Sequence record: OL770073.2
Length of the DNA: 64,000 bases
Origin: Escherichia phage vB_EcoM-RPN226
Direction: 5' to 3' (one strand)
This document shows positions 6,078 through 42,172 of the stretch, piece after piece (position 1 is the first letter of the stretch; each line of letters opens with the position of its first letter). Both the position numbers and the translations under genes were made by a program. The notes below the pieces were generated by a model, which saw only the letters and a list, made by a program, of their open reading frames with translations, was not told the origin of the DNA and did no database searches.

Positions 6078-6105
6078 AATTCTCATTTGAATTGAAGGAA
6101 ATTAA

Positions 6106-6792
6106 ATGAAATTATCTAAAGACACGCTGAATATTTTGAAAAATTTCGCTACTATTAACTCTGGTATTATGCTTAAATCCGGTCAATTTATTATGACTCG
6201 CGCGGTTAATGGTACAACTTATGCGGAAGCAAATATTTCTGACACTATTGATTTTGATGTAGCGATTTACGATTTGAACGGTTTTCTCGGTATTCTGTCT
6301 CTAGTTAATGATGATGCAGAAATTTCCCAGTCAGAAGATGGTAATATTAAAATTGCTGATGCCCGTTCAACAATTTTTTGGCCAGCAGCCGATCCGAGTA
6401 CAGTAGTTGCTCCTAATAAACCAATTCCATTCCCGGTAGCATCTGTTGTTACTGAAATTAAAGCGGAAGACCTTCAACAGCTGTTGCGTGTATCTCGCGG
6501 TCTGCAGATTGATACAATTGCTATCACAGTAAAAGAAGGTAAAATCGTAATTAACGGTTTTAATAAAGTGGAAGATTCTGCTTTGACCCGTGTTAAATAT
6601 TCTTTGACTCTTGGTGATTATGATGGTGAAAATACATTTAATTTCATTATCAATATGGCAAATATGAAAATGCAACCAGGAAATTATAAACTTCTTCTCT
6701 GGGCAAAAGGTAAACAAGGCGCTGCTAAATTTGAAGGTGAACATGCGAATTATGTAGTAGCTCTTGAAGCTGATTCTACCCACGATTTTTAA
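6106..6792 (+). CDS. 45: sliding clamp gp45
   Basis: 228 aa, matches T4 gp45 along length. Confidence 0.95.
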   Translation: MKLSKDTLNILKNFATINSGIMLKSGQFIMTRAVNGTTYAEANISDTIDFDVAIYDLNGFLGILSLVNDDAEISQSEDGNIKIADARSTIFWPAADPSTVVAPNKPIPFPVASVVTEIKAEDLQQLLRVSRGLQIDTIAITVKEGKIVINGFNKVEDSALTRVKYSLTLGDYDGENTFNFIINMANMKMQPGNYKLLLWAKGKQGAAKFEGEHANYVVALEADSTHDF

Positions 6793-8738: not shown

Positions 8739-8739
8739 T

Positions 8740-8961
8740 ATGACTGCTATAACCCCGCAAGAATACATGGCGTCTCTTAAAGAAAAATATAATCTTTCTG
8801 CAACAGAAACACTTTTTGATTTACCAGAAAATCTCCAACTAAAATTTCAGGTAGAATTTCAAAAATTAGTTCACCCAGAACAAAAACACTTTACCGCAGT
8901 GGTTAAGTCAATTAATGCAGATGGATTGACAATTTTTCACCGACAAACGGTATTAATTTAA
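8740..8961 (+). CDS. hypothetical protein
   Basis: 73-aa ORF between regA and gene 43. Confidence 0.4.
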   Translation: MTAITPQEYMASLKEKYNLSATETLFDLPENLQLKFQVEFQKLVHPEQKHFTAVVKSINADGLTIFHRQTVLI

Positions 8962-9042: not shown

Positions 9043-11736
9043 AAAGAATTTTATATCTCTATCGAAACAGTCGGAAATAATATTGTTGAGCGTTATATTG
9101 ATGAAAACGGAAAGGAACGTACTCGTGAAGTAGAATATCTTCCGACTATGTTTAGGCATTGTAAGGAAGAGTCAAAGTACAAAGACATTTATGGTAAAAA
9201 CTGTGCTCCTCAAAAATTTCCATCAATGAAAGATGCACGAGATTGGATGAAACGAATGGAAGACATCGGTCTCGAAGCTCTTGGTATGAACGATTTTAAA
9301 CTCGCTTATATCAGTGATACATATGGTTCAGAAATTGTTTATGACCGAAAATTTGTTCGTGTAGCTAACTGTGACATTGAGGTTACTGGTGATAAATTTC
9401 CTGACCCAATGAAAGCAGAATATGAAATTGATGCTATCACTCATTATGATTCAATTGACGACCGTTTTTACGTCTTTGATTTGTTGAATTCAATGTACGG
9501 TTCAGTATCAAAATGGGATGCAAAGTTAGCTGCTAAGCTTGACTGTGAAGGTGGTGATGAAGTTCCTCAGGAAATTCTTGACCGAGTAATTTATATGCCA
9601 TTTGATAATGAGCGTGATATGCTCATGGAATATATTAATCTCTGGGAACAGAAACGACCTGCTATTTTTACCGGTTGGAATATTGAGGGATTTGACGTTC
9701 CGTATATCATGAATCGTGTTAAAATGGTTCTCGGTGAACGCAGTATGAAACGCTTCTCTCCAATCGGTCGAGTAAAATCTAAACTAATTCAAAATATGTA
9801 CGGTAGCAAAGAAATTTATTCTATTGATGGCGTATCTATTCTTGATTATTTAGATTTGTACAAGAAATTCGCATTTACTAATTTGCCATCATTCTCTTTG
9901 GAATCAGTTGCTCAGCACGAAACCAAAAAAGGTAAATTGCCGTACGATGGTCCTATTAATAAACTTCGTGAGACTAATCATCAACGATACATTAGTTATA
10001 ACATCATTGACGTAGAATCAGTTCAAGCAATTGATAAAATTCGCGGGTTTATCGATCTAGTTTTAAGTATGTCTTATTACGCTAAAATGCCTTTTTCTGG
10101 TGTAATGAGTCCTATTAAAACTTGGGATGCTATTATTTTTAACTCACTGAAAGGTGAACATAAGGTTATTCCTCAACAAGGTTCGCACGTTAAACAGAGT
10201 TTTCCAGGTGCATTTGTATTTGAACCTAAACCGATTGCTCGTCGATACATTATGAGTTTTGACTTGACGTCTCTGTATCCTAGCATTATTCGTCAGGTTA
10301 ACATTAGTCCTGAGACTATTCGTGGACAGTTTAAAGTTCATCCAATTCATGAATATATCGCAGGAACAGCTCCTAAGCCAAGTGATGAATATTCTTGTTC
10401 TCCGAATGGATGGATGTATGATAAGCATCAAGAAGGTATCATTCCAAAGGAAATCGCTAAAGTATTTTTCCAACGTAAAGATTGGAAAAAGAAAATGTTC
10501 GCTGAAGAAATGAATGCCGAAGCTATTAAAAAGATTATTATGAAAGGTGCAGGGTCTTGTTCAACTAAACCAGAAGTTGAACGATATGTTAAGTTCAATG
10601 ATGATTTCTTAAACGAATTATCGAATTACACTGAATCTGTTCTTAATAGTCTGATCGAAGAATGTGAAAAAGCAGCTACACTTGCTAACACAAATCAGCT
10701 GAACCGTAAAATTCTTATCAACAGTCTTTATGGTGCTCTTGGTAATATTCATTTCCGTTACTATGATTTGCGAAATGCTACTGCTATCACAATTTTTGGT
10801 CAAGTTGGTATTCAGTGGATTGCTCGTAAAATTAATGAATACCTAAATAAAGTATGTGGAACTGATGGTGAAGATTTCATCGCAGCAGGTGATACTGATT
10901 CGGTATATGTTTGTGTAGATAAAGTAATTGAAAAAGTAGGTCTTGACCGCTTTAAAGAACAAAATGATTTAGTTGAATTCATGAATCAGTTCGGTAAGAA
11001 AAAGATGGAACCTATGATTGATGTTGCATATCGTGAGTTATGCGATTATATGAATAACCGCGAGCATCTGATGCATATGGACCGTGAAGCTATTTCTTGC
11101 CCTCCGCTTGGTTCAAAGGGTGTTGGTGGATTTTGGAAAGCGAAAAAACGTTATGCTCTGAACGTTTATGATATGGAAGATAAGCGATTTGCTGAACCAC
11201 ATCTAAAAATCATGGGTATGGAAACTCAGCAGAGTTCAACACCAAAAGCAGTACAAGAAGCTCTCGAAGAAAGTATTCGTCGTATTCTTCAGGAAGGCGA
11301 AGAGTCTGTCCAAGAATACTATAAGAACTTTGAGAAAGAATATCGTCAACTTGACTATAAAGTTATTGCTGAAGTAAAAACCGCGAACGATATAGCGAAA
11401 TATGATGATAAAGGTTGGCCAGGGTTTAAATGCCCGTTCCATATTCGTGGTGTACTAACTTATCGTCGAGCTGTTAGTGGTTTAGGTGTAGCTCCAATTT
11501 TGGATGGAAATAAGGTAATGGTTCTTCCATTACGTGAGGGAAATCCATTTGGTGACAAGTGTATTGCTTGGCCGTCGGGCACAGAACTTCCAAAAGAAAT
11601 TCGTTCTGATGTACTGTCTTGGATTGACTACTCAACTTTGTTCCAAAAATCGTTTGTTAAACCGCTTGCGGGCATGTGTGAATCGGCAGGTATGGACTAT
11701 GAGGAAAAAGCTTCGTTAGACTTCCTGTTTGGCTGA
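9040..11736 (+). CDS. 43: DNA polymerase gp43 (family B, with 3'-5' exonuclease)
   Basis: 898 aa as in T4 gp43; exo motifs (FANCDIEV, YNIIDVES), pol motifs (DLTSLYPS, KILINSLYG, YGDTDS). Confidence 0.97.
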   Translation: MKEFYISIETVGNNIVERYIDENGKERTREVEYLPTMFRHCKEESKYKDIYGKNCAPQKFPSMKDARDWMKRMEDIGLEALGMNDFKLAYISDTYGSEIVYDRKFVRVANCDIEVTGDKFPDPMKAEYEIDAITHYDSIDDRFYVFDLLNSMYGSVSKWDAKLAAKLDCEGGDEVPQEILDRVIYMPFDNERDMLMEYINLWEQKRPAIFTGWNIEGFDVPYIMNRVKMVLGERSMKRFSPIGRVKSKLIQNMYGSKEIYSIDGVSILDYLDLYKKFAFTNLPSFSLESVAQHETKKGKLPYDGPINKLRETNHQRYISYNIIDVESVQAIDKIRGFIDLVLSMSYYAKMPFSGVMSPIKTWDAIIFNSLKGEHKVIPQQGSHVKQSFPGAFVFEPKPIARRYIMSFDLTSLYPSIIRQVNISPETIRGQFKVHPIHEYIAGTAPKPSDEYSCSPNGWMYDKHQEGIIPKEIAKVFFQRKDWKKKMFAEEMNAEAIKKIIMKGAGSCSTKPEVERYVKFNDDFLNELSNYTESVLNSLIEECEKAATLANTNQLNRKILINSLYGALGNIHFRYYDLRNATAITIFGQVGIQWIARKINEYLNKVCGTDGEDFIAAGDTDSVYVCVDKVIEKVGLDRFKEQNDLVEFMNQFGKKKMEPMIDVAYRELCDYMNNREHLMHMDREAISCPPLGSKGVGGFWKAKKRYALNVYDMEDKRFAEPHLKIMGMETQQSSTPKAVQEALEESIRRILQEGEESVQEYYKNFEKEYRQLDYKVIAEVKTANDIAKYDDKGWPGFKCPFHIRGVLTYRRAVSGLGVAPILDGNKVMVLPLREGNPFGDKCIAWPSGTELPKEIRSDVLSWIDYSTLFQKSFVKPLAGMCESAGMDYEEKASLDFLFG

Positions 11737-11748
11737 TAGAATAAATCT

Positions 11749-11771
11749 AGGGACCTCCGGGTCCCTTTTTC
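11749..11771 (+). terminator. GGGACC-UCCG-GGUCCC hairpin with U5
   Basis: directly after gene 43 stop. Confidence 0.65.
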
Positions 11772-11853
11772 ACACAAGTAATGTAAATCTATACTTAAGA
11801 AAAATAGATGATTCTAGGTCCTGTAAATTCATTAAAAATTTTTTCACAAAACT

Positions 11854-11884
11854 GTTTACATCCCGGTTCCTTTGTGGTACTATA
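11854..11884 (+). promoter_or_regulatory. T4-type early promoter (cassette copy A)
   Basis: A/T-rich UP region, -35-like GTTTAC, -10-like TACTAT about 18 bp downstream; shared leader GGTACTATACAACTATCAACTGATAC. Confidence 0.6.
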
Positions 11885-11917
11885 CAACTATCAACTGATA
11901 CGGATTTGGAGAATGAA

Positions 11918-12298
11918 ATGAAAATCGCTATTTTGGTTATTGCATTGGGTCTTACTGGTTGTGTAGCTCAAGGACCAGTAGTAAATCAGTCTGATGCAGG
12001 AAAAATTGTAAACTGTTCAAGCAAATTTTATAATCCTAACGTCAAGTGTTATAAAGAGGCTCCAAAACAGACAGTAGAACAAATGCAGGCGAATTTTGAC
12101 GAAGCTATTCGTCCAGATGAATCTGCACAAACATATCGTAATTCAGATGTAATTACGCGTGAAGAAAAAATTGAAAACTACTGTGCTGAACTTTGGGCAA
12201 ATTGGGCTAATAATTACCAATGGCGTACTGGTAAAAATGCTCCGATGGAGTATGTAGTAAATTCTTATAATTCATGTGTAAAAAATTTGACTAAGTGA
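11918..12298 (+). CDS. putative lipoprotein (imm.1 position)
   Basis: 126 aa from ATG with GGAG RBS; signal peptide plus lipobox LTGC; track ORF start 11729 is read-through of promoter region. Confidence 0.5.
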   Translation: MKIAILVIALGLTGCVAQGPVVNQSDAGKIVNCSSKFYNPNVKCYKEAPKQTVEQMQANFDEAIRPDESAQTYRNSDVITREEKIENYCAELWANWANNYQWRTGKNAPMEYVVNSYNSCVKNLTK

Positions 12299-12305
12299 GG
12301 AAAAG

Positions 12306-12557
12306 ATGGAAACTTTAGTAGCAGGTTCAATTTTTATGGTTTTAGTTTCAGGCGTGTTGGCTATTATTATATACATGCTTCCGTGGTTCATCGCCTTGAT
12401 GCGTGGGTCAAAATCGACAGTAGGAATCTTTTTCACATCTTTACTGTTTAACTGGTCAATCATTGGTTGGTTTATTACTTTTATTTGGTCAATTGCCGGT
12501 GAAACTAAAAAGTCAACACAGCCAAATCAAGTAATTATCATCAGAGAGAAGGAATGA
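12306..12557 (+). CDS. imm: superinfection immunity membrane protein Imm
   Basis: 83 aa, two hydrophobic helices, matches T4 Imm. Confidence 0.8.
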   Translation: METLVAGSIFMVLVSGVLAIIIYMLPWFIALMRGSKSTVGIFFTSLLFNWSIIGWFITFIWSIAGETKKSTQPNQVIIIREKE

Positions 12558-12710: not shown

Positions 12711-13451
12711 ATGATTAACGATTATATGACAGTTGAAGAAATCCGTCTTGATTTGGGTCTTGCATTAAAGGAAAAAGATTTCGTAATTGATAAAACCGGG
12801 GTTAAAACTATTGAAATTATTGGTGCATCATTTGTAGCAGATGAACCTTTTATTTTTGGCGCTCTTAATGATGAATACATTCAACGTGAACTTGAATGGT
12901 ATAAGTCTCAAAGTTTGTTTGTTAAAGATATTCCAGGTGAAACACCAAAGATTTGGCAGCAGGTAGCATCTTCTAAAGGCGAAATTAACTCGAATTATGG
13001 TTGGGCCATCTGGTCAGAAGATAACTATGCCCAGTATGATATGTGTTTAGCTGAACTTGGTCAAAATCCTGATTCTCGACGTGGTATCATGATTTATACT
13101 CGTCCATCCATGCAGTTTGACTACAATAAAGATGGCATGTCAGATTTCATGTGTACTAATACAGTACAGTACCTGATTCGTGATAAGAAAATTAATGCAG
13201 TGGTTAATATGAGAAGCAATGACTGCTGGGCAGGCTATCGTAATGATTATGCGTGGCAAAAATACGTACTAGATAAATTAGTATCTGATTTGAATGCAGG
13301 CGACCCATCACGACAGTATAAAGCAGGTTCTATTATATGGAATGTTGGAAGTCTTCATGTGTACGAAAATCAGTTTTATTTGGTTGACCATTGGTGGAAC
13401 ACCGGTGAAACCCATATTGCTAAAAAGGATTATACTGGAAAATGGAAGTAA
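12711..13451 (+). CDS. 42: dCMP hydroxymethylase gp42
   Basis: 246 aa, thymidylate-synthase-like fold; matches T4 gp42. Confidence 0.95.
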   Translation: MINDYMTVEEIRLDLGLALKEKDFVIDKTGVKTIEIIGASFVADEPFIFGALNDEYIQRELEWYKSQSLFVKDIPGETPKIWQQVASSKGEINSNYGWAIWSEDNYAQYDMCLAELGQNPDSRRGIMIYTRPSMQFDYNKDGMSDFMCTNTVQYLIRDKKINAVVNMRSNDCWAGYRNDYAWQKYVLDKLVSDLNAGDPSRQYKAGSIIWNVGSLHVYENQFYLVDHWWNTGETHIAKKDYTGKWK

Positions 13452-14083
13452 ATGCGCCACATGTTTATAAGTATAAACATCCTAAAACTAAAAAGTGGTA
13501 TATAGGAAGTCATGATGGTCACAACCCGAATTATGATGGTTCGGGTGTAGTTTGGCAACATGCTAAAAAGAAATATGGAATAAAATCCTTTAATAAAGAA
13601 ATATTATATGAAGGACCAATGTTTAGACAGGTTGAAGAAATTATTTTAACTTGTTTAGATGCTGCTAATTGTCCAGATTCATATAATTTAAAGAATGAAG
13701 CATGGGGAGGAAGTTTTCCAGGCAAATTAAATGGAATGTACGGTAAAAAACTATCTCCAGAAGAAAGATATAAGTGCGGAAATGCCTTTCGTGGAATCAA
13801 GCGTCCTGATCATTCTAAAAGAATGAAAGGCGAAGGTAATCCAATGTATGGTAAAAATGAGCAGGCATATGGAATTATAAATCGAGCAAAGGAAAATTCT
13901 GGTAAAACTTATGAAGAAATTTTTGGCGCAGAAAAAGCTAAAATAATTAAAGAAACGATGTCTAAAAATCGTAAAGGAAAACCTCATAATTTGATAGAAA
14001 AAATATGTCCGCATTGCGGACTAAAAGGACGTGGGCCAAATATGACAAGATACCATTTTGACAAATGTAAGGCACTTAAATGA
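13442..14083 (+). CDS. GIY-YIG homing endonuclease (Seg-like, free-standing)
   Basis: N-terminal VYKYKH...KKWYIGSH (GIY-YIG), basic NUMOD-like repeats, C-terminal CPHCG zinc motif; start overlaps 3' end of gene 42. Confidence 0.6.
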   Translation: MEVNAPHVYKYKHPKTKKWYIGSHDGHNPNYDGSGVVWQHAKKKYGIKSFNKEILYEGPMFRQVEEIILTCLDAANCPDSYNLKNEAWGGSFPGKLNGMYGKKLSPEERYKCGNAFRGIKRPDHSKRMKGEGNPMYGKNEQAYGIINRAKENSGKTYEEIFGAEKAKIIKETMSKNRKGKPHNLIEKICPHCGLKGRGPNMTRYHFDKCKALK

Positions 14084-14922
14084 TTCAATTCGTAATTCCA
14101 AGTTATCAACGCGTAGGGGCAGTTTCTGCCCTTGATATGTTTCCATCTGATTATGAACCTCATATTGTAGTACGTAAACACGAAGAAAAAGCTTATTATG
14201 ATGCTTATGGGTCTAGAGCTAAAATTATAACTATTCCTGATGATGTTAATGGAATTGCTGGTACTCGTAAAGCAATTACTGATATGTATGCAGGCCAACG
14301 AATCTGGATGATTGATGATGATACTACTATTCGTATGAGTTCAATGCGAAAGAAAGATGATCGTCGCTGCGTAGATAAAATTAATCAATTAACTCGTGAA
14401 CAGTTCTATGAATTGATTCAATACGTTGAAGATGCAATGGATTGTGGGTATTATCACGGTCATGCTCGTCTACCTATTTTTAAAATTACTTCATCTTGGG
14501 GTAATTATCGTGAAAATTCATATGGATTCACGAATACCTGGTATGACCTCGGAAAACTTACAACAGAACAAATTGGGTATGGAAAAATTGATTTATGCGA
14601 AGATATGTATGCATTTCTCAATTTAATTAATCAAGGTTATCCGCATTTGGCCTTGTTCAAATATCTGGTTGTGTCTGGAAAAGCACAAGCTCCAGGCGGA
14701 TGTAGTTCAATTCGTAGTAATTCAAAACATAATAGAGCTCTTGAGCAAATCAATAGAGAGTTTCCAGAGCAAGCTCGTTGGAAAACATCGAATATTGAAA
14801 AGAGAAAATCGTTGGGCGAAGAAGACGAGCCATTAAAGGTTCTTCGCATGTGTGTTTCGCGCAAAGAAAAATCAGAAGCGTTTCATAAGTTTAATGCTAT
14901 TCATCCAATAGCAGTCGATTAA
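14080..14922 (+). CDS. GT-A type glycosyltransferase at the beta-gt locus (candidate HMC-DNA glucosyltransferase, not T4 beta-gt)
   Basis: 280 aa; VIPSYQR near N-terminus and WMIDDD (DxD) motif; occupies slot between 42 and uvsX. Confidence 0.45.
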   Translation: MIQFVIPSYQRVGAVSALDMFPSDYEPHIVVRKHEEKAYYDAYGSRAKIITIPDDVNGIAGTRKAITDMYAGQRIWMIDDDTTIRMSSMRKKDDRRCVDKINQLTREQFYELIQYVEDAMDCGYYHGHARLPIFKITSSWGNYRENSYGFTNTWYDLGKLTTEQIGYGKIDLCEDMYAFLNLINQGYPHLALFKYLVVSGKAQAPGGCSSIRSNSKHNRALEQINREFPEQARWKTSNIEKRKSLGEEDEPLKVLRMCVSRKEKSEAFHKFNAIHPIAVD

Positions 14923-14999: not shown

Positions 15000-15929
15000 A
15001 TGTCTATTGCAGATTTAAAATCCCGTTTGATTAAAGCTTCCACTTCTAAAATGACTGCTGAACTGACTACATCTAAATTCTTTAATGAAAAGGATGTAAT
15101 CCGTACAAAAATCCCAATGCTCAATATCGCTATTTCCGGCGCGATTGATGGTGGTATGCAGTCTGGTTTAACTATTTTTGCAGGTCCTTCTAAACACTTT
15201 AAATCAAATATGTCTTTGACTATGGTTGCGGCGTATTTGAACAAATATCCTGACGCGGTTTGTCTATTTTATGATAGCGAATTTGGTATTACTCCAGCTT
15301 ATTTGCGATCCATGGGAGTTGACCCGGAACGAGTAATTCATACGCCAATTCAGTCAGTTGAACAGCTGAAAATTGATATGGTGAATCAGCTTGAAGCTAT
15401 TGAGCGCGGTGAAAAAGTTATTGTATTCATCGACTCAATCGGTAATATGGCTTCTAAGAAAGAAACGGAAGATGCCTTGAATGAAAAATCTGTGGCAGAT
15501 ATGACTCGTGCTAAATCACTGAAGTCATTATTCCGTATTGTTACTCCTTATTTTAGTATTAAAAACATTCCATGTGTTGCGGTTAACCATACAATTGAAA
15601 CAATTGAAATGTTTAGTAAAACCGTGATGACAGGTGGTTGTGTTATTGCTGGTACTAAAATCCAGATGTCCGATGGTTCTACTAAAGCAGTTGAAGATAT
15701 TCGCCCGGGTGAACGTGTTAAAACCATGGTCGGTGATAATGAAGTAACTTATGTTTGGGACCCCGAAACTCTGGCTGAAGGTACTCCTGAATGTTTCGAA
15801 ATTGAATTCGAAGACGGTTATAAAGTAACTACTTCTAATACTCATAAATTTCTGGTAATGGTTAAAGACATTCCAACGTGGGTTGAAGCTAAAGACTTAG
15901 TAGCCGGTATGGATTGTGTTGTAAGGTAA
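15000..15929 (+). CDS. uvsX: UvsX recombinase N-terminal part (213 aa) fused to N-terminal half of a split intein (96 aa)
   Basis: residues 1-213 colinear with T4 UvsX up to KTVMTGG; then CVIAGTKIQMSDGS (Hint block A, Cys1) and TTSNTHKF (block B); stop at 15927. Confidence 0.85.
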   Translation: MSIADLKSRLIKASTSKMTAELTTSKFFNEKDVIRTKIPMLNIAISGAIDGGMQSGLTIFAGPSKHFKSNMSLTMVAAYLNKYPDAVCLFYDSEFGITPAYLRSMGVDPERVIHTPIQSVEQLKIDMVNQLEAIERGEKVIVFIDSIGNMASKKETEDALNEKSVADMTRAKSLKSLFRIVTPYFSIKNIPCVAVNHTIETIEMFSKTVMTGGCVIAGTKIQMSDGSTKAVEDIRPGERVKTMVGDNEVTYVWDPETLAEGTPECFEIEFEDGYKVTTSNTHKFLVMVKDIPTWVEAKDLVAGMDCVVR

Positions 15930-16829
15930 ATAAATATGGATACCGGACTAATGTATATTTTGAGGTATCCATATGAATTTTGTCTACAAAATCGTGTTCA
16001 ACAATAGAATTAAAGAAAACACTCCACCGTTTTACTACATAGGAAGCAAAACGAACGCTTCCTATGTAGATGGTAAGATTATAGATTCCAATGGTCATGA
16101 GTACTATGGTTCATCGAGATATCCCGGATATTATGATTTTATCGATAATGTTACGGTGGAAATACTTGAACAATTCGATGAGATAGAACACGCCGAACTA
16201 TTAGAGCGTGAAAATTTTTATCAGAAACAAGTAAAAGTTAAAACAAATCCAGATTATTTTAATTTGGATTATGCATGCGGACATAATTCATATGCTAATT
16301 CTGATTTTGCGTCGTACAAGCATCATATAACAGGCAAATGTATTCGTCTTGAAAGAAACCATCCTCTTGTTAAATCGGGAGAATATGTTGGCGTCACAAA
16401 AGGCGCGAAATGTTCTGATGCTCATCGTAAGCTCATATCAGAAGCTATTACTGGAGAAAACAACGGTTTCTATGGTAAGAAACATTCTAAAGAAACCCTC
16501 GATATAATAGCAGAAAAGGCAAAGAAAAGATTAAAGCATTCCCATCCTAGACAAAAAGGTGTTATTATAAACGGTATTGAATATCGTGGTGTCCGTCCTG
16601 CTGCAAGAGAACTAGGAATTAATCCTAATACAATTATCCGCAAGATTAAAACTAACACTAAAGGCTGGGCTTATGCGGCACAGTGATATTATTAAACTAG
16701 CTACTACGAAACACAAGGTAAAGTATGAAAATTAAATCTGTTAAATCTGTTGGTAAAAAAGAAGTCTATGATTTGTCTGTTGCTGACGTAGAGCATTATG
16801 TTTTAGAAAATGGTATCGTTACACACAAC
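15639..16829 (+). mobile_element. split intein plus embedded free-standing homing endonuclease gene interrupting uvsX
   Basis: N-intein 15639..15926, HEG 15973..16686, C-intein 16725..16829; exteins rejoin to a 393-aa UvsX. Confidence 0.75.
15973..16686 (+). CDS. GIY-YIG homing endonuclease (free-standing, between the two uvsX pieces)
   Basis: own RBS (TGAGGTA) and ATG, different frame from uvsX; FVYKIVF...PFYYIGSK GIY-YIG motif; NUMOD-like FYGKKHSKETL; C-terminal HTH-like GINPNTIIRKIK. Confidence 0.65.
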   Translation: MNFVYKIVFNNRIKENTPPFYYIGSKTNASYVDGKIIDSNGHEYYGSSRYPGYYDFIDNVTVEILEQFDEIEHAELLERENFYQKQVKVKTNPDYFNLDYACGHNSYANSDFASYKHHITGKCIRLERNHPLVKSGEYVGVTKGAKCSDAHRKLISEAITGENNGFYGKKHSKETLDIIAEKAKKRLKHSHPRQKGVIINGIEYRGVRPAARELGINPNTIIRKIKTNTKGWAYAAQ

Positions 16830-17372
16830 ACAGGCGTAATGTATTCGGCTGATACCGTATTCATTATCGGTAAACGTCAGATTAAAGATGGTTCTGATCT
16901 TCAGGGGTATCAATTTGTTCTAAATGTAGAAAAATCTCGTACCGTTAAAGAAAAAAGTAAATTCTTTATTGATGTTAAATTTGACGGTGGTATCGATCCT
17001 TATTCTGGATTGTTAGATATGGCTCTTGAATTAGGATTTGTAGTAAAACCTAAAAATGGTTGGTATGCTCGTGAATTTCTTGACGAAGAAACCGGTGAGA
17101 TGATTCGCGAAGAAAAATCTTGGCGTGCAAAAGATACCAACTGCACTACATTCTGGGGTCCTTTATTTAAACATCAACCATTCCGAGATGCTATTAAACG
17201 TGCTTATCAGTTAGGTGCTATTGATAGTAATGAAATTGTTGAAGCTGAAGTTGATGAATTGATTAACTCAAAGGTTGAAAAATTTAAATCTCCAGAAAGT
17301 AAAAGTAAATCAGCAGCTGATTTAGAAACTGACCTAGATCAGTTAAGTGATATGGAAGAATTTAATGAATAA
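16725..17372 (+). CDS. uvsX: C-terminal half of split intein (35 aa) fused to UvsX C-terminal part (180 aa)
   Basis: MKIKSVKSVGKKEVYDLSVADVEHYVLENGIVTHN (blocks F/G ending His-Asn) then Thr+1 and TGVMYSADTVFIIGKRQ... colinear with T4 UvsX C-terminus; own RBS. Confidence 0.85.
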   Translation: MKIKSVKSVGKKEVYDLSVADVEHYVLENGIVTHNTGVMYSADTVFIIGKRQIKDGSDLQGYQFVLNVEKSRTVKEKSKFFIDVKFDGGIDPYSGLLDMALELGFVVKPKNGWYAREFLDEETGEMIREEKSWRAKDTNCTTFWGPLFKHQPFRDAIKRAYQLGAIDSNEIVEAEVDELINSKVEKFKSPESKSKSAADLETDLDQLSDMEEFNE

Positions 17373-23316: not shown

Positions 23317-23343
23317 AGGACTCCTTCGGGAGTCCTTTTTTCA
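23317..23343 (+). terminator. AGGACUCC-UUCG-GGAGUCCU hairpin with U7
   Basis: directly after soc stop. Confidence 0.7.
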
Positions 23344-23351
23344 TTTTACTG

Positions 23352-23382
23352 GTTTACTTTCCAAAATGAGTATGGTATAATA
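23352..23382 (+). promoter_or_regulatory. T4-type early promoter
   Basis: GTTTAC ... TGGTATAAT. Confidence 0.55.
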
Positions 23383-24455: not shown

Positions 24456-24633
24456 ATGGTTCAATAGACCAAACTCAATGTACATTGATGATGGTTGGGT
24501 TGAACAAGCAAATAAAGAAATGCAGAACGAATCAGAAGAATGGATGAAATCAATGATTAGCGTTGAGAAAGAAAAGAAATTAGAACGCTCAGCGCTTAAA
24601 TTGATGAGAGACATCTATGGGGATAAATCATGA
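24430..24633 (+). CDS. hypothetical protein
   Basis: 67-aa ORF. Confidence 0.35.
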
Positions 24634-32097: not shown

Positions 32098-32182
32098 AGT
32101 TTAAAATTTTTTCATAAAACTATATACATCAGTAGTTGATTATGGTACTATATCAATATCAACTACTGATACAGAAAACAAC

Positions 32183-32464
32183 TTGGAGAATAAAATGGAA
32201 AACTTAATTATCATCGAACAATCTTTCAACGATTATGGTATGGCTTATGGTTATCGTGCGATAATGGAAGATTCTCGTGGATGTGTTATCGATATTGCAG
32301 AGTGTAAAGATTTACTGCAGCTTTTGAAGATTGTTCGTAAAAATTGGGATTGTGAAAACATTAAAGTTCGTGTTGTAACAGAAGAAGAAACTGTTTTTCA
32401 TGATGTAAAATTCGCCAAAGGTGCTGCTACTCTTCTGAAACGCATCGCTCTACTGTTTAATTAA
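32183..32464 (+). CDS. hypothetical protein
   Basis: 93-aa ORF downstream of degenerate promoter cassette. Confidence 0.4.
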   Translation: MENKMENLIIIEQSFNDYGMAYGYRAIMEDSRGCVIDIAECKDLLQLLKIVRKNWDCENIKVRVVTEEETVFHDVKFAKGAATLLKRIALLFN

Positions 32465-33999: not shown

Positions 34000-35817
34000 A
34001 TGATTAAGAATGAAATTAAAATTCTGAGCGATATTGAACATATCAAAAAGCGTAGCGGCATGTATATTGGCTCTTCTGCTAATGAAATGCATGAGCGCTT
34101 TCTGTTTGGTAAATGGGAAAGTGTTCAGTATGTACCTGGTCTTGTTAAGCTTATTGATGAAATTATCGATAACTCAGTAGATGAAGGTATTCGTACTAAG
34201 TTTAAATTCGCAAATAAAATTAATGTTACTATCAAAAACAATCAAGTAACAGTTGAAGATAACGGTCGTGGTATTCCACAAGCGATGGTTAAAACACCTA
34301 CCGGTGAAGAAATTCCTGGTCCAGTTGCTGCATGGACTATTCCAAAAGCAGGTGGTAACTTTGGTGATGATAAAGAACGCGTCACTGGCGGTATGAACGG
34401 TGTTGGCTCTAGTTTAACTAACATTTTTTCTGTGATGTTTGTCGGTGAAACTGGCGACGGTCAAAATAATATTGTAGTTCGTTGTTCAAACGGCATGGAA
34501 AATAAATCGTGGGAAGATATTCCTGGAAAATGGAAAGGAACTCGCGTTACTTTCATTCCCGATTTTATGTCATTTGAAACTAATGAGCTATCTCAGGTTT
34601 ATCTTGACATTACACTAGATCGTCTCCAGACACTTGCAGTAGTTTATCCTGATATTCAATTTACCTTTAATGGTAAAAAGGTTCAGGGTAATTTTAAGAA
34701 ATACGCACGCCAATATGATGAGCATGCTATCGTTCAAGAACAAGAAAATTGTTCTATTGCGGTTGGTCGTTCACCGGATGGTTTTCGTCAATTAACATAC
34801 GTCAATAACATTCATACTAAGAATGGTGGCCACCACATTGACTGCGTTATGGATGATATTTGTGAAGACCTTATTCCACAAATCAAACGTAAATTTAAAA
34901 TTGACGTAACTAAAGCACGTGTTAAAGAATGTTTGACTATCGTTATGTTTGTTCGTGATATGAAAAACATGCGATTTGATTCTCAGACTAAAGAGCGTTT
35001 GACTTCTCCATTTGGTGAAATTCGTAGTCATATTCAGCTTGATGCTAAAAAGATTTCACGTGCTATTTTAAATAATGAAGCAATTTTAATGCCAATTATT
35101 GAAGCTGCTTTGGCTCGTAAATTGGCGGCAGAAAAAGCAGCAGAAACTAAAGCAGCTAAAAAGGCTTCTAAAGCTAAGGTTCATAAACATATTAAAGCGA
35201 ATCTTTGCGGTAAAGATGCTGATACTACTCTTTTCTTGACTGAGGGTGATTCGGCTATTGGATATCTTATTGATGTTCGTGATAAAGAACTTCATGGTGG
35301 TTATCCATTGCGTGGTAAAGTTCTTAACAGTTGGGGTATGTCATATGCTGATATGCTTAAAAACAAAGAACTGTTTGATATTTGCGCAATCACTGGATTG
35401 GTTCTTGGTGAAAAAGCCGAAAACTTGAATTATCATAATATTGCTATTATGACAGATGCTGACCATGATGGTCTAGGAAGCATTTATCCTTCTCTGCTCG
35501 GATTTTTTAGTAATTGGCCAGAACTGTTTGAACAAGGAAGAATTCGCTTTGTCAAAACTCCTGTAATCATCGCTCAGGTCGGTAAAAAACAAGAATGGTT
35601 TTATACAGTCGCTGAATATGAGAGTGCCAAAGATGCTCTACCTAAACATAGCATCCGTTATATTAAGGGACTTGGCTCTTTGGAAAAATCTGAATATCGT
35701 GAGATGATTCAAAATCCAGTATATGATGTTGTTAAACTTCCTGAGAATTGGAAAGAGCTTTTTGAAATGCTTATGGGAGATAATGCTGACCTTCGTAAAG
35801 AATGGATGAGCCAGTAG
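34000..35817 (+). CDS. 39: DNA topoisomerase II large subunit gp39 (ATPase plus TOPRIM, full length, no gene 60 split)
   Basis: 605 aa; GHKL ATPase motifs, TOPRIM EGDSA and DADHDG; in T4 this protein is split into 39 and 60. Confidence 0.9.
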   Translation: MIKNEIKILSDIEHIKKRSGMYIGSSANEMHERFLFGKWESVQYVPGLVKLIDEIIDNSVDEGIRTKFKFANKINVTIKNNQVTVEDNGRGIPQAMVKTPTGEEIPGPVAAWTIPKAGGNFGDDKERVTGGMNGVGSSLTNIFSVMFVGETGDGQNNIVVRCSNGMENKSWEDIPGKWKGTRVTFIPDFMSFETNELSQVYLDITLDRLQTLAVVYPDIQFTFNGKKVQGNFKKYARQYDEHAIVQEQENCSIAVGRSPDGFRQLTYVNNIHTKNGGHHIDCVMDDICEDLIPQIKRKFKIDVTKARVKECLTIVMFVRDMKNMRFDSQTKERLTSPFGEIRSHIQLDAKKISRAILNNEAILMPIIEAALARKLAAEKAAETKAAKKASKAKVHKHIKANLCGKDADTTLFLTEGDSAIGYLIDVRDKELHGGYPLRGKVLNSWGMSYADMLKNKELFDICAITGLVLGEKAENLNYHNIAIMTDADHDGLGSIYPSLLGFFSNWPELFEQGRIRFVKTPVIIAQVGKKQEWFYTVAEYESAKDALPKHSIRYIKGLGSLEKSEYREMIQNPVYDVVKLPENWKELFEMLMGDNADLRKEWMSQ

Positions 35818-38274: not shown

Positions 38275-39213
38275 ATGTACAATATTAAATGCCTGACCAA
38301 AAACGAACAAGCTGAAATTGTCAAACTGTATTCAAGCGGTAATTATACCCAACAGGAATTGGCTGATTGGCAAGGTGTATCGGTTGACACAATCCGTCGT
38401 GTTTTGAAAAATGCTGAAGAAGCTGAGCGTTCCAAAGTTACCATTAGCGGTGACATTACAGTTGAAGTTAAGAGTGATGTAGCTATTGCTCCAGTTGCTA
38501 AATCTGACATTATTTGGAATGCATCTAAAAAATTCATTTCAATTACTGTTGATGGCGTAACTTATAACGCAACTCCTAATACTCATTCAAACTTCCAGGA
38601 AATTCTTAATCTGCTTGTTGAAGATAAATTGGAAGAAGCAGCGCAAAAAATTAATGTTCGTCGCGCTGTTGAAAAATATATTTCCGGTGATGTTCGAATT
38701 GAAGGCGGAAGCTTGTTCTATCAAAATATTGAATTGCGGTCTGGTTTAGTTGATCGTATTCTCGATTCGATGGAAAAAGGTGAAAACTTTGAATTTTATT
38801 TTCCGTTCTTGGAAAATCTGTTGGAAAATCCAAGCCAAAAAGCAGTATCTCGACTCTTTGATTTCTTGGTAGCAAACGATATTGAAATTACAGAAGATGG
38901 TTACTTCTATGCTTGGAAAGTAGTTCGCAGCAATTACTTTGACTGTCATTCAAATACTTTTGATAACAGTCCTGGTAAAGTAGTTAAAATGCCACGTACT
39001 CGCGTGAATGACGATGATACACAAACTTGTTCTCGTGGTCTGCATGTGTGTTCTAAATCTTATATTCGTCACTTTGGCAGTTCAACCAGCCGAGTTGTAA
39101 AAGTTAAAGTACATCCTCGCGATGTAGTATCAATTCCGATCGATTACAACGATGCTAAAATGCGTACCTGCCAATACGAAGTAGTTGAAGACGTTACTGA
39201 ACAATTTAAATAA
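38275..39213 (+). CDS. rIIB: RIIB protein
   Basis: 312 aa as in T4 rIIB. Confidence 0.9.
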   Translation: MYNIKCLTKNEQAEIVKLYSSGNYTQQELADWQGVSVDTIRRVLKNAEEAERSKVTISGDITVEVKSDVAIAPVAKSDIIWNASKKFISITVDGVTYNATPNTHSNFQEILNLLVEDKLEEAAQKINVRRAVEKYISGDVRIEGGSLFYQNIELRSGLVDRILDSMEKGENFEFYFPFLENLLENPSQKAVSRLFDFLVANDIEITEDGYFYAWKVVRSNYFDCHSNTFDNSPGKVVKMPRTRVNDDDTQTCSRGLHVCSKSYIRHFGSSTSRVVKVKVHPRDVVSIPIDYNDAKMRTCQYEVVEDVTEQFK

Positions 39214-39230
39214 GGGCTTCGGCCCTTAAC
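39212..39230 (+). terminator. AAGGGC-UUCG-GCCCUU hairpin (no U tract)
   Basis: directly after rIIB; may be RNA-stabilising stem-loop and not a terminator. Confidence 0.4.
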
Positions 39231-39241
39231 TAAGGAAAATT

Positions 39242-39436
39242 ATGTTAGGTTATCAAGCACGAGTAAAAGAAGAATACGATCAATTAATGCTCAAAATTAA
39301 TGCACTGAGCAAATTTTTAGAAAGCGCAAAGTTTCTAACAGTTAGTGCAGTTGAGCAAGAACTGTTACTTTCACAGTTCATCTCAATGAAATCTTATGCT
39401 GAATGTCTAGAGAAAAGAATTGCACAATTCAAATAA
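39242..39436 (+). CDS. hypothetical protein
   Basis: 64-aa ORF flanked on both sides by the same GGGCUUCGGCCC hairpin. Confidence 0.4.
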   Translation: MLGYQARVKEEYDQLMLKINALSKFLESAKFLTVSAVEQELLLSQFISMKSYAECLEKRIAQFK

Positions 39437-39439
39437 AAT

Positions 39440-39462
39440 AAGGGCTTCGGCCCTTTTGTTTT
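39440..39462 (+). terminator. AGGGC-UUCG-GCCCU hairpin with U-rich tail
   Basis: after ORF 39242..39436. Confidence 0.55.
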
Positions 39463-39521
39463 AAGAGAAATTATGATTTATTATATGAATATCAGTGATT
39501 CCGGCATAAAGGAAAGTTTAA

Positions 39522-40079
39522 ATGCAGAAAACGAATCCGGGTTTACAGAGACTATTTCAGATTCCGACATTTACCCTATCGAACAGTGACTTGACTAGTG
39601 AAATGAAGGTCAAAATTGCTGATACAGCAAGATACTCTTTAAAACAAAATCCAAATCAGGATAAGGCAGAAGTTATCGAAAGATGCCGTATCGCTGTGTA
39701 CGCAGAATTTTTTGTGGCAGATTGGCTAAGCGGATATGTCAATAAAGGCCAAGAAGATGTCGATGATCCGTACACATATGCATGGGATGTACTGGCGCAT
39801 CCAAAATACTGCGGGCTTCGTGTAGAAGTCAAAACACATCAAACTGACTCACGTTGGATTTCGGTAACAACCGGATGCAGCGGAGAGTATCCATACGGTT
39901 CTGGAATAAATCTAGGGCCCATTCTAAATCATCAAGTCGCTGACTGTATAATTATATTCAACACTAAAGAAATTCATCCAGGTGTCATCCAGTACACTCC
40001 GAAATTCATCGGTGATAGAGAAGACCTTCGTAAGGTTGTAAGAAAAAGCAACTACAATGGATGGTATCTTTCCATTTAA
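39522..40079 (+). CDS. denB: endonuclease IV DenB
   Basis: 185 aa as in T4 DenB. Confidence 0.8.
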   Translation: MQKTNPGLQRLFQIPTFTLSNSDLTSEMKVKIADTARYSLKQNPNQDKAEVIERCRIAVYAEFFVADWLSGYVNKGQEDVDDPYTYAWDVLAHPKYCGLRVEVKTHQTDSRWISVTTGCSGEYPYGSGINLGPILNHQVADCIIIFNTKEIHPGVIQYTPKFIGDREDLRKVVRKSNYNGWYLSI

Positions 40080-40095
40080 AAATTTTCACAAAACG

Positions 40096-40126
40096 GTTTA
40101 CATACCACAAGGACTGTGGTAATATA
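40096..40126 (+). promoter_or_regulatory. T4-type early promoter (cassette copy B)
   Basis: GTTTAC ... TAATAT; downstream leader almost identical to copy A. Confidence 0.55.
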
Positions 40127-40159
40127 CAACTATCAACTGATACGGATTTGGAGAATAAA

Positions 40160-40366
40160 ATGTTTACTACAGCTGAATTAAAACGAGCAAAAGCTAAGAA
40201 AGGGCAAGGAAAATATAAAGCTGAATTAGTTAAAGAACTTCAGTTTGCTGAGGCTGAATTGAATTCAATGATTATTCAAAATGCTCCAGAAACTGAAATT
40301 GCTCTTAAGCGTATTGCGAATAAGTGTCTTCGTGATGCAATCGTCGATCTTTTAGCGGATTATTGA
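40160..40366 (+). CDS. hypothetical protein
   Basis: 68 aa from ATG after GGAGAAT; track start 40061 is read-through of promoter. Confidence 0.4.
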   Translation: MFTTAELKRAKAKKGQGKYKAELVKELQFAEAELNSMIIQNAPETEIALKRIANKCLRDAIVDLLADY

Positions 40367-40583
40367 GTAAAATGAAAATCGTTGAGATTGAACTATGAGT
40401 TCATTATGGTGGTGTTTTGTTTGGTTAATTAGTATTCCAGTAATTTGTTTAACATTTACTTTTGTAATGAGGTTATTATGAAAATTTTGAATTCTGTACT
40501 TATTGCTTGTGCGTGGTGGGTTGCACAAGTTTCAGCGGTAGTAGTTGGTATTCACATTTATTACGAATATTTTTAAAAAAGTT

Positions 40584-40614
40584 GTTTACAAGACTGTTCC
40601 TCTATGGTACTATA
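40584..40614 (+). promoter_or_regulatory. T4-type early promoter (cassette copy C)
   Basis: GTTTAC ... TACTAT. Confidence 0.55.
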
Positions 40615-40641
40615 CAACTATCAACTACGGAGGAACAGAAA

Positions 40642-40755
40642 ATGAAAAAGATTATTAAAGCTATATGGAATGTAGTTATAATACTAATAGTTTTGAGTAT
40701 ATTCCCAATCGTTTTAATGATTGATGTATTAAACGTTTACTTTGGATTTATGTGA
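40642..40755 (+). CDS. small hydrophobic protein (37 aa)
   Basis: MKKIIKAIWNVVIILIVLSIFPIVLMIDVLNVYFGFM. Confidence 0.3.
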   Translation: MKKIIKAIWNVVIILIVLSIFPIVLMIDVLNVYFGFM

Positions 40756-40762
40756 GGAAAAT

Positions 40763-40960
40763 ATGAAGCGTAAACGCAGTGCTTTTACATTTATTGAATG
40801 GTTTTTCGATAATATTTTTCCGGCTTTATTCATTTTCATGCTGATTTTTGCCTTAGGTTCAGTTGTAGTTGGAATCTATTTGATGGCGGTAGTCGGAATG
40901 GATATTCATCAAAATGGTTTAAAATCCGTAGTTGAAACAATTTGGAATGGTGTAAAATGA
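40763..40960 (+). CDS. small membrane protein (65 aa)
   Basis: MKRKRSAF... with hydrophobic core FPALFIFMLIFALGSVVVGIYLMAVVG. Confidence 0.35.
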   Translation: MKRKRSAFTFIEWFFDNIFPALFIFMLIFALGSVVVGIYLMAVVGMDIHQNGLKSVVETIWNGVK

Positions 40961-41075
40961 TGAATTTACTAAACATTTGGTTTTATATTCTTATGTTTTA
41001 CATTGGTGCAAATTTCCCATATTGGATGGGATGGTCAACAACTGCGTTTGGATTTTATACTCCTTGAGGTGAATT

Positions 41076-41291
41076 ATGAAAATCTTTAAAGATGTAAAAG
41101 TTGGTGAAATTTTTTGCTTAGATAATGGTGATCAGTTAATTCGTATTTCGCCTCTTAAAAGCACTAGCGAGAAAATGACAGTTAACGCTACTTTAGCAAA
41201 TAACAACAATGAACGTTTCTGTATTGAAAATGATACTGAAACTTATACTGTAGAAGAGTTTTGGGAATTGAGCGTCGACTGCGACGATTAA
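41076..41291 (+). CDS. hypothetical protein
   Basis: 71-aa ORF. Confidence 0.4.
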   Translation: MKIFKDVKVGEIFCLDNGDQLIRISPLKSTSEKMTVNATLANNNNERFCIENDTETYTVEEFWELSVDCDD

Positions 41292-41351
41292 TTTAATGGC
41301 CGCATGGATACATGCGGTCTTGGAGCAGAAAATAATTTAGAGGAAATTAAT

Positions 41352-41795
41352 ATGAAATACATGACTGTTACTGATCTGAATAATGCAGGCGCTACTGTTA
41401 TTGGTACAATTAAGGGTGGTGAATGGTTTTTAGGAACTCCGCATAAAGATATTTTATCTAAACCTGGATTTTACTTTTTAGTAAGTGAATTCGATGGTTC
41501 ATGCGTATCTGCACGATTTTATGTAGGTAATCAGCGTTCTAAGCAAGGATTCAGCGCAGTTCTAAGTCATATTCGTCAACGCCGGTCTCAGCTTGCGCGT
41601 ACTATTGCAAATAACAATATGGTATACACAGTATTTTATCTGCCTGCTTCTAAGATGAAACCTCTGACGACAGGATTTGGAAAAGGTCAGTTAGCTTTGG
41701 CGTTTACTCGTAACCATCATTCTGAGTATCAAACGCTTGAAGAAATGAATCGTATGTTGGCTGATAACTTTAAATTTGTTTTGCAGGCATACTAA
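41352..41795 (+). CDS. ndd: nucleoid disruption protein Ndd (tentative)
   Basis: 147 aa from [18 protein letters not shown]; matches my recollection of T4 Ndd N-terminus and its position between denB and 52. Confidence 0.5.
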
Positions 41796-41875
41796 TGAGT
41801 AATTTCCACAACGAACACGTGATGCAGTTCTATCGTAACAATCTTAAAACCAAAGGCGTCTTCGGACGCCAGTGA
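41795..41875 (+). CDS. stp: Stp peptide (26 aa; suppressor of three-prime phosphatase, PrrC activator)
   Basis: hand-translated [26 protein letters not shown]; ATG overlaps ndd stop. Confidence 0.65.
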
Positions 41876-41882
41876 GGAAAAT

Positions 41883-42035: not shown

Positions 42036-42168
42036 GAAAATCTTGGGCTATTCATTAGCCCTTGCTGCTTTATTGGTAGCACTATATTACGGAATAATGT
42101 TCGGATTAATTCAAGTCGTGCTTTTCATTTCTGATGTTATTATGGCACTACATTCACTAGTATGGTAA
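42028..42168 (+). CDS. small membrane protein (46 aa)
   Basis: MIKKILGYSLALAALLVALYYGIMFGLIQVVLFISDVIMALHSLVW. Confidence 0.3.
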   Translation: MIKKILGYSLALAALLVALYYGIMFGLIQVVLFISDVIMALHSLVW

Positions 42169-42172
42169 ATTT

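Follow-up and report, generated by a model that had tools for sequence, protein, structure and literature searches.

A family of predicted early promoter cassettes with a shared leader and translation start in the T4-like Escherichia phage vB_EcoM-RPN226

Promoter-early stem-loop elements (PeSLs) were defined in the phages RB49 and phi1 as repeats of ~100 bp beside differential ORFans, which contain an A/T-rich region together with a sigma-70-like promoter and a stem-loop and finish in a Shine-Dalgarno sequence and ATG (Arbiol et al. 2010, PMC2839356). Experiments in phi1 and RB49 demonstrated that these elements act as promoters and terminators and that mini-circles form (PMC2839356). The description was subsequently extended to PST and T4, with the consensus TTTACW-N17-TAYWAT, the notion of 'half' PeSLs and a worked example at denB/ndd (Fig. 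6A; Comeau, Arbiol & Krisch 2014, PMC4122927). The early promoters of T4 have themselves been reviewed as UP, -35, TGn and -10 elements with additional consensus (PMC2988021).

We analysed a stretch of 64,000 nucleotides from Escherichia phage vB_EcoM-RPN226 (OL770073.2), hereafter the window. The phage is a Tequatrovirus (T4-like coliphage): by alignment, the window is collinear with T4 (NC_000866) at ~92-97% identity, and megablast of 11400-12400 and 39000-44500 returned hundreds of Tequatrovirus genomes at 90-99% identity. PST is ~96% identical to window positions 39000-44500. The plus strand of the window corresponds to the T4 minus strand and to the direction of early transcription. Gene order runs 47/46, 43, imm, 42, uvsX, 41, 61, rIIA/B, denB, ndd, 52 and motA, and continues past motA with tail-fibre genes and then 32, frd and td.

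The original prediction, made from the letters of the window, was that a promoter and leader module recurs at six sites, and the repeat was recovered at every one of them. We observed a block of ~85 nt at these sites and at a seventh, 61021-61095, which was missing from the earlier list and is followed by frd.1 (82 aa). The 17-mer GGTACTATACAACTATC, with up to three mismatches allowed, has six matches, all on the plus strand (11876, 32144, 40118, 40606, 43727 and 60339), compared to 0.18 expected; none of 100 shuffles reached six. A repeat search yielded the family D1, with 59 nt aligned at six sites and a weaker seventh copy at 61021-61079. Finally, a profile built from the seven copies scored its own members at 46-79 bits and the best other early promoter at 25 bits, and searching both strands of the window with this profile found no further cassette copies. 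A multiple alignment of the copies (A1) has a mean column identity of 67% over 137 columns and a 3' end of the form GGAG...ATG.

We next list the seven cassettes, the genes behind them and three terminator-like hairpins.

11749-11771, plus strand: terminator-like hairpin GGGACCTCCGGGTCCC followed by T5, just 3' of the gene 43 (DNA polymerase) stop; stem 11749-11766, -13.9 kcal/mol, z -3.5
11834-11917, plus strand: cassette 1, gene 43/imm.1; UP 11834-11853, -35 GTTTAC 11854-11859, TGn plus -10 TGGTACTAT 11875-11883, predicted start 11890, GGAG 11908-11911, ATG at 11918
11918-12298, plus strand: imm.1, 126 aa, behind cassette 1; phrog_1754, E 1e-43, T4 annotation imm.1
32102-32194, plus strand: cassette 2, degenerate, after motB; -35 ATATAC 32122-32127, -10 TACTAT 32146-32151, predicted start 32158, GGAG 32185-32188
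32195-32464, plus strand: 89-aa ORF behind cassette 2, between motB and cef; phrog_3720
40076-40159, plus strand: cassette 3, after denB and overlapping its stop; -35 40096-40101, -10 TAATAT 40120-40125, predicted start 40132, GGAG 40150-40153
40160-40366, plus strand: cargo module like PST ORF269, 68 aa; phrog_4535
40564-40641, plus strand: cassette 4, ndd.5/ndd.4, overlapping the ndd.5 3' end; -35 40584-40589, -10 40608-40613, predicted start 40620, GGAG 40629-40632
40642-40755, plus strand: ndd.4-like membrane peptide, 37 aa, behind cassette 4; phrog_3098, PST annotation Ndd.4
43652-43680, plus strand: terminator-like hairpin AGGGAGAGCCTCGGCTCTCCCT followed by T7, 3' of motA.1; stem 43652-43673, -18.6 kcal/mol, z -4.7, also found in the terminator scan
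43685-43775, plus strand: cassette 5, motA promoter/leader; -35 43705-43710, -10 43729-43734, predicted start 43741, GGAG 43764-43767
43776-44411, plus strand: motA, activator of middle transcription, 211 aa; phrog_1345, E 2.7e-99
60267-60291, plus strand: hairpin GGGGACCCTAGAGGTCCCC followed by T6, directly 3' of gene 32; stem 60267-60285, -14.3 kcal/mol
60297-60389, plus strand: cassette 6, gene 32/frd.3; -35 60317-60322, -10 60341-60346, predicted start 60353, Shine-Dalgarno GAGG 60378-60381
60390-60620, plus strand: frd.3-like gene, 76 aa; phrog_1764, T4 annotation
61021-61095, plus strand: cassette 7, frd.2/frd.1, overlapping the frd.2 3' end; -35 61041-61046, -10 TACTAT 61065-61070, predicted start 61077, GGAGAATAAAATG 61086-61098

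The cassettes form a group distinct from other early promoters. A listing of every GTTTAC-N17-TAnnnT site includes 17 plausible early promoters on the plus strand; ten other early promoters in the window are without the family -10/leader part. Identity in the 7-nt -10 segment is 0.95 within the family and 0.74 among the ten non-family promoters. Over the 20 nt after the -10, it is 0.65 within the family, 0.33 among non-family promoters and 0.40 for pairs with one promoter from each group, so the copies are closer to one another than to the other early promoters. Pairs of cassettes in the window are identical at 37-56 of 73 positions, with exact runs of up to 34 nt; a run of this length is common to cassettes 1 and 3. 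For the block from -45 to the ATG, identity between copies is 50-77%, and the longest exact run in T6 reaches 40 nt. These exact repeats of 34-40 nt extend through the leader and the Shine-Dalgarno sequence. The read-through peptide IQLSTDTDLEN, which had been pointed out in two ORFs, is indeed present in both conceptual translations; it is a mere by-product, because the shared leader happens to lie in frame.

All cassettes are built in the same order: UP region, GTTTAC(A), 17-nt spacer, TGn and TACTAT (TGGTACTAT), ACAACT, leader, Shine-Dalgarno sequence and ATG. The UP region is A/T-rich and ~20 nt long (AAAAATTTTTTCACAAAAC). The -35 reads GTTTAC in six of the seven copies and ATATAC in one (32122), the -10 reads TACTAT in six and TAATAT in one at a spacing of 17 nt, and all seven have TGG or TGA ahead of the -10. 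Among the copies that the scan covered, A/T content over the 30 nt upstream is 77-87% for those with GTTTAC between 11855 and 60318 and 73% for the frd.2 copy (61042); the sequence ahead of the degenerate 32122 copy is A/T-rich too. The copies thus display what characterizes a T4 early (sigma-70) promoter, namely a -35, 17-nt spacer and TAnnAT -10, an extended -10 and an A/T-rich UP region (-40 to -60). In cassette 2, the -35, spacer and -10 are identical in T4 at its position 6630.

Start sites were predicted from T4. In T4, the ortholog of the 11854 copy already has a name, Pe26.4. The published map units are 27,044 for this early promoter and 150,727 for Pe148.6 (PMC6024815), and in both cases subtracting 36 from the position of the G in the T4 GTTTAC gives the same figure. 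Applying this offset to the window predicts starts at 11890, 32158, 40132, 40620, 43741, 60353 and 61077, and the RNA should begin at the A of ATCAACT. The 21-nt sequence GGTACTATACAACTATCAACT had been taken for a leader shared by the copies. It is repeated as claimed, but it consists mostly of extended -10 and discriminator, and only the part from ATCAACT onward would be transcribed.

A GC hairpin with a U tract had been ascribed to every module. We found one at three sites (11749, 43652 and 60267) and not at the others, so that the PeSL stem-loop is present in the copies behind 43, motA.1 and 32 and absent from those at 32102, 40076, 40564 and 61021. The hairpin at 11749, upstream of which gene 43 was placed from the annotation of relatives, stands 87 nt ahead of the -35, and 62 nt separate its T tract from cassette 1. 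The hairpin at 60267 corresponds to the T4 gene 32 terminator, and the T4 sequence is identical. No stable hairpin was detected in the 45-50 nt upstream of the 32102, 40076, 40564 and 61021 copies, where folding energies were -1.8 to -6.4 kcal/mol and z-scores against shuffles -1.6 to +0.6. These four are promoter-only relatives, the 'half PeSLs' of Comeau (Fig. 5 legend). At its 3' end, the family has the Shine-Dalgarno sequence and start codon of a PeSL, with repeated conservation over ~100 bp. A predicted role of the cassettes as early promoters and terminators is well supported.

Among the seven downstream genes, a function is assigned only for motA, and imm.1 has a lipoprotein-type signal (MKIAILVIALGLTGC). 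The proposal that every cassette is followed by a small, poorly conserved or membrane-protein gene is wrong at one site in six, namely motA, which is a conserved key regulator.

The same family occupies seven orthologous positions in T4 (27080, 6630, 167086, 166807, 163673, 146875 and 146143). Further T4 members precede e.8, nrdC.10, nrdC.9, mobD.5 and trna.4, and leader sub-types are common to distant loci. An exact-match scan of IMG/VR returned 30 loci, 27 of them in contigs of T4-like phages, and a single genome carried as many as nine copies. All seven cassettes are at fixed orthologous positions in T4, T2 and T6, and it is the cargo that varies instead. Comparing synteny with these three genomes, as the original prediction had suggested, we observed variation in cassette-adjacent modules at the 43, motB, denB and frd.2 loci; variable cargo thus directly follows four of the seven cassettes, and in IMG/VR relatives the motA cassette is a fifth example.

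Four arrangements exist at the denB locus: no module (T4), ORF269 (this phage), ORF269 with ORF268 (PST) and ORF268 alone (T6 and several IMG/VR contigs). ORF269 is flanked by the leader-like 20-mers CGGATTTGGAGAATAAAATG on the left and CGGATTATTGAGTAAAATG on the right. PST keeps unannotated homologs of ndd.6 and ndd.5, which makes the T4/PST difference an insertion and not the published exchange. Between 43 and imm.1, an extra signal-peptide gene of 78-85 aa is found in T2 and in four IMG/VR metagenomic loci; this gene is missing in the window and T4, and the insert is flanked by ATGAAAAT. At the motB locus, T4 and T6 are without an internal 200 nt (32203-32402) of the 89-aa ORF, and the deletion junction is ATGGAAAA/ATGTAAAA. 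The frd.2-frd.1 locus of T4 and T6 has an extra micro-ORF of 85 nt, flanked by GGAGAAAAGAAAATG and GGAGAATAAAATG. At the motA locus, one relative (L021) carries a 75-aa gene between two cassettes with the common leader CTATCAAATAAATGAACTGAAAC, and in another (L019) the left promoter is partly deleted. ORF269, the motB segment and the extra 43-imm.1 gene occur in 117, 260 and 319 phage records, respectively, of about 535-600. The junctions map to the leader and the translation start. On the right-hand side, they are Shine-Dalgarno/ATG microhomologies of 8-20 nt, with no second PeSL.

We conclude that the seven copies very probably constitute one sub-family of T4-type sigma-70 early promoters with a leader and a strong start, which doubles as dispersed homology for the gain and loss of modules. 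The anatomy, T4 orthology, cargo polymorphism and junctions on which this explanation is based come from the present analysis, and early activity and the RegB cleavage of motA come from the literature. In each copy, a predicted early promoter is joined to a strong translation start by a short leader without structure. Three copies stand directly behind a putative intrinsic terminator of the preceding unit (43, 52/motA.1 and 32) and are full PeSL units. Unmodified host RNA polymerase would fire the cassettes immediately after infection. The block similarity and long exact runs suggest that the cassettes also serve as dispersed homology, and ectopic recombination or conversion may swap patches between them. 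Promoterless modules would be gained and lost directly behind the cassette ATG, with the result that any captured gene would be expressed early. A more specific version of this process is tentative and less likely than not: the cassettes may act as dispersed 'expression landing pads', at which promoterless modules are captured and lost by recombination in the 13-40 nt of leader and start (...GATACGGATTTGGAGAATAAAATG) and not between two complete PeSLs, each module bearing a degenerate 3' copy of GATACGGATTTGGAGAATAAAATG and the slot being regenerated.

Instead, the similarity might reflect selection for strong early promoters and translation starts, or common descent, with no causal role in shuffling; indels would then gather near the cassettes only because a whole-gene indel has to end in intergenic DNA, and much of this is promoter. 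We consider this unlikely, although several observations fit it. The cassettes occupy the same seven loci in all four genomes compared (the window, T4, T2 and T6), an extended consensus is a known feature of T4 early promoters (PMC2988021), and four of the seven spacers are locus-specific, with 15-17 of 17 positions kept between the window and T4. Moreover, we counted 21 distinct structural differences from T4, T2 and T6, of which four break at a family cassette; most of the remainder are at homing endonucleases (segA, segF, segG, mobA, td intron), glucosyltransferases and the tail-fibre adhesin. Four cassette events far outnumber the ~0.2 expected over the whole sequence, but ~3 are expected if junctions are intergenic-only, and against this baseline the excess is not significant; the latter figure is an estimate from 21 events versus three genomes, and these leaders are a sizeable part of intergenic DNA. 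A junction at the promoter was seen for four of seven family members compared to one of ten non-family promoters, which is only suggestive (P ~0.1, an estimate). Set against these points, the ACAACTATCAACT... block is dispensable for promoter function, since ten other early promoters in the window do without it. The other three spacers are of a shared, swapped type, and functionally neutral spacers have been swapped between non-orthologous cassettes: in T4, the spacers of imm.1 and ndd.4 agree at 16 of 17 positions, whereas the T4 imm.1 spacer shares only 9 of 17 with its window ortholog, the frd.3 spacers of the window and T4 agree at 6 of 17 positions between flanks that agree at 27/30 and 20/20, and the T4 frd.3 spacer variant aagcataaagctttatg is the spacer of the nrdC.10 cassette. 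Selection or descent is likewise at odds with the exact repeats that run through leader and Shine-Dalgarno sequence, with the position of ORF269 between two leader-like 20-mers and with the L021 gene between two cassettes. A cassette contribution to local plasticity is plausible, but not proven; that the cassettes cause shuffling, as opposed to merely sitting where it is tolerated, is what we infer. Nothing shows that the cassettes themselves move, because all seven are positionally fixed in T4, T2 and T6. We also considered concerted evolution, on the grounds of a 3-nt ACT deletion shared by the imm.1 and denB copies here and in T6, and rejected it: the two loci agree in four of six genomes, which is about chance.

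Another reading, compatible with the main explanation and in our view rather improbable, is that the transcribed part (ATCAACTACTGATAC...GGAGAATAAAATG) is a cis-acting RNA signal that defines a co-regulated set of immediate-early genes; it could serve as a recognition context for RegB/S1, enhance translation or form an mRNA-protecting 5'-terminal hairpin. The leader ends in GGAG in six of the seven copies and in GAGG in one, and GGAG is found in the Shine-Dalgarno sequence of four of the ten other early promoters. The motA mRNA is a documented RegB target that is cut within its Shine-Dalgarno sequence, and GGAG 43764-43767 is the site described in the T4 literature (PMC2988021). GGAG in this position makes most cassette transcripts candidates for RegB cleavage. 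In addition, the 13-mer GGAGAATAAAATG occurs five times in the window, compared to 0.36 expected, and ends four leaders, and three copies are able to form a short stem at the 5' end, UAUCA/UGAUA or UAUCGGCA/UGCUGAUG. Against an RNA signal, the predicted true leaders, which are G-poor, vary in length from 19 to 37 nt, and five of six fold no better than shuffles (z -0.9 to +0.8); the exception is frd.3, where a small hairpin is predicted at the 5' end (z -2.2). Scanned against Rfam, the entire window gave no match at the gathering score. A structured cis-regulatory RNA was rejected on the basis of these folding and Rfam results. A protective UAUCA...UGAUA hairpin at the 5' terminus was rejected as well, since the stem is broken or absent in the ndd.4, frd.1, imm.1 and ORF269 copies and in many relatives. 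Public records point to yet another interpretation, in which a site-specific mobile element or prophage-like insert has its ends or attachment sites at the repeats: in the T6 record, the 40-nt repeat TGGTACTATACAACTATCAACTGATACGGATTTGGAGAAT is labelled attL/attR at the cassettes of imm.1 and denB, and the T2 record labels TATCAACTACTGATACAGAA at the motB and motA cassettes likewise. We give this practically no credence and rejected it. The marked pairs lie tens of kilobases apart, with core T4 genes between them (replication, rII, topoisomerase), each genome has more than two copies, what is labelled is the -10, leader and Shine-Dalgarno part of early genes, and the record notes 'similar to PHAGE_...' point to an automatic prophage finder.

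Read as early promoters that double as dispersed homology, the cassettes mark the starts of immediate-early units and, together with the hairpins, three terminators; beyond annotation, this is of little importance. The family explains why the public records of T2 and T6 contain spurious attL/attR features, and it flags the short strain-specific genes behind cassettes as likely accessory, host-adaptation cargo. For the engineering of T4-like phages, it is of use that natural genomes accept inserted genes in the slot directly behind a cassette. The four-state denB locus, the retention of ndd.6 and ndd.5 in PST, the Shine-Dalgarno/ATG junctions and the spacer swaps are small additions to the PeSL picture. 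If the tentative landing-pad process operates, the system would be integron-like without an integrase, and captured genes would be immediate-early and RegB-limited.

In integron arrays, small genes that lack a promoter become expressed through insertion behind a resident one that stays in place. By analogy, promoterless genes in this phage may gain expression from a resident promoter. Unlike integrons, there is no integrase and no attC/attI here, and general recombination or leader/start microhomology would serve; there are also many dispersed slots as opposed to one array.

The cassettes are also comparable to T4 early promoters such as Pe26.4 and the motA promoter. They share the UP/-35/TGn/-10 structure, are orthologous at seven loci and fit the same start offset (PMC2988021, PMC6024815). 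In contrast to T4 early promoters at large, the copies are one sub-family, about 7 of 17 in the window, marked by TACTAT-ACAACT-ATCAACT and by a shared leader and translation start. By this comparison, the general early-promoter consensus does not account for the shared block, leader and translation start.

The PeSLs of RB49 and phi1 resemble the cassettes in being repeats of ~100 bp with a promoter, a stem-loop and a Shine-Dalgarno/ATG end that lie beside variable ORFans, and there too a PeSL borders gene 43. They differ in their near-perfect TTGACA/TATAAT elements and in the stem-loop, which is usually between or over the -35 and -10. Activities and mini-circles have been demonstrated for those phages only. 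The closest match is to the PeSLs of PST and T4, which belong to the same clade and share with the cassettes the TTTACW-N17-TAYWAT consensus, the denB/ndd locus and the 'half' PeSLs (PMC4122927), together with the A/T-rich upstream part, the stem-loop just upstream and the Shine-Dalgarno sequence and start codon at the 3' end. Unlike the published cases, this phage has a third denB arrangement, ORF269 without ORF268, with the fourth, ORF268 alone, in T6 and IMG/VR, and its junctions are Shine-Dalgarno/ATG microhomologies and not PeSL-PeSL crossovers. The original prediction of T4-type cassettes of the PeSL kind tied to variable small genes is thus supported by the T4 orthologs, by Pe26.4, by the published PST/T4 elements (PMC4122927) and by the cargo polymorphism. 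In conclusion, the repeats are an already published element, recognized here in a close relative of the published phages.

The uvsX region of the window (15000-17372) appears, from its predicted protein products, to be a fractured gene, in which a split intein would divide the coding sequence and a free-standing endonuclease gene would lie between the two halves. Pfam matches assign the ORFs of this region as follows.

ORF 15000-15929: N-terminal part of UvsX, running into the N-terminal half of a Hint domain (...MTGG/CVIAGTKIQ...)
ORF 15973-16686: NUMOD3 homing-endonuclease-like gene
ORF 16725-17372: C-terminal half of the intein (...GIVTHN/TGVMY), followed by the C-terminal domain of UvsX

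Genome comparison showed that the 1.2-kb insert in uvsX is absent from T4, T2 and T6, and matches to it were found in only 12 of 50,697 phage records, all at 91% identity or less. The paper that defined fractured genes counts gp41, NrdA, NrdJ, IMPDH and DnaE among their hosts, whereas UvsX is mentioned there only as an adjacent ORF that lies upstream (PMC2677866).

Several other segments distinguish the window from one or more of these three phages. A 213-aa ORF at 13442-14083, which overlaps the end of gene 42 and shows a weak match to NUMOD3, is absent from T2 and T6, and the 280-aa ORF downstream of it (region 13442-14922) is found in place of the T4 beta-glucosyltransferase/segA segment. 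Between regA and gene 43 we observed a 219-nt insert (8739-8957) that is not present in T4, T2 or T6 and that is annotated as a hypothetical protein in one relative. The dihydrofolate reductase gene frd (61335-61928) is diverged or replaced when compared to T4, T2 and T6, and in the phage record search no record covered more than 80% of window 59500-62000. Both T4 (NC_000866, ~146,020-146,105) and T6 carry an unannotated 22-aa micro-ORF, MFAPYIMAAVMLVCLYLLIKAC, which has its own GGAG Shine-Dalgarno sequence and is placed between the frd.2/frd.1 promoter and frd.1; this micro-ORF is missing in the window. At the topoisomerase genes, the window has 64 nt (35417-35482) compared to 1117 nt in T4, where this length covers the last part of gene 39, mobA, 60.1 and the 5' portion of gene 60, including the 50-nt translational bypass of that gene. 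The compact gene 39/60 state is common to the window, T2 and T6, and from this junction it follows that the gene for the large topoisomerase subunit is contiguous in the window.

The leader of the early-promoter cassettes is also found in the records of T6 and T2, under a different label. In the T6 record (AP018814), a 40-nt repeat from this leader, TGGTACTATACAACTATCAACTGATACGGATTTGGAGAAT, is annotated as attL/attR at 24507-24546 and 166589-166628, and in the T2 record (AP018813) the same is true of a 20-nt repeat, TATCAACTACTGATACAGAA, at 6093-6112 and 158300-158319. Both pairs of labels appear to be artefacts that arose when prophages were predicted automatically.

A repeat search of the window further identified a family, D3, consisting of six intergenic copies of a GGGCTTCGGCCC-type hairpin with a C(UUCG)G tetraloop.

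Window 1206, 6787, 8957, 33923, 39204 and 39432: D3 hairpin copies

These are probably the classic intercistronic CUUCGG hairpins of T4. Outside the cassette family, a composite of terminator and early promoter lies at ~23317-23381, where AGGACTCCTTCGGGAGTCCTTTTTT is followed by GTTTAC-N17-GTATAAT; it is the counterpart of the T4 soc-mrh.2 intergenic region. Since this composite exists, the list of recurring hairpin and promoter modules in the original prediction was incomplete.

At the denB/ndd locus, PST (NC_027404) holds intact homologs of T4 ndd.6 (28 aa) and ndd.5 (32 aa), at locus positions ~2138-2381, in a stretch that has no annotated gene. Since PST retains both ndd.6 and ndd.5, the difference between T4 and PST is an insertion of ORF269 and ORF268, the PST cargo genes behind the denB cassette, whereas the 2014 study of promoter-early stem-loop elements described a gene exchange (Comeau, Arbiol & Krisch, PMC4122927).
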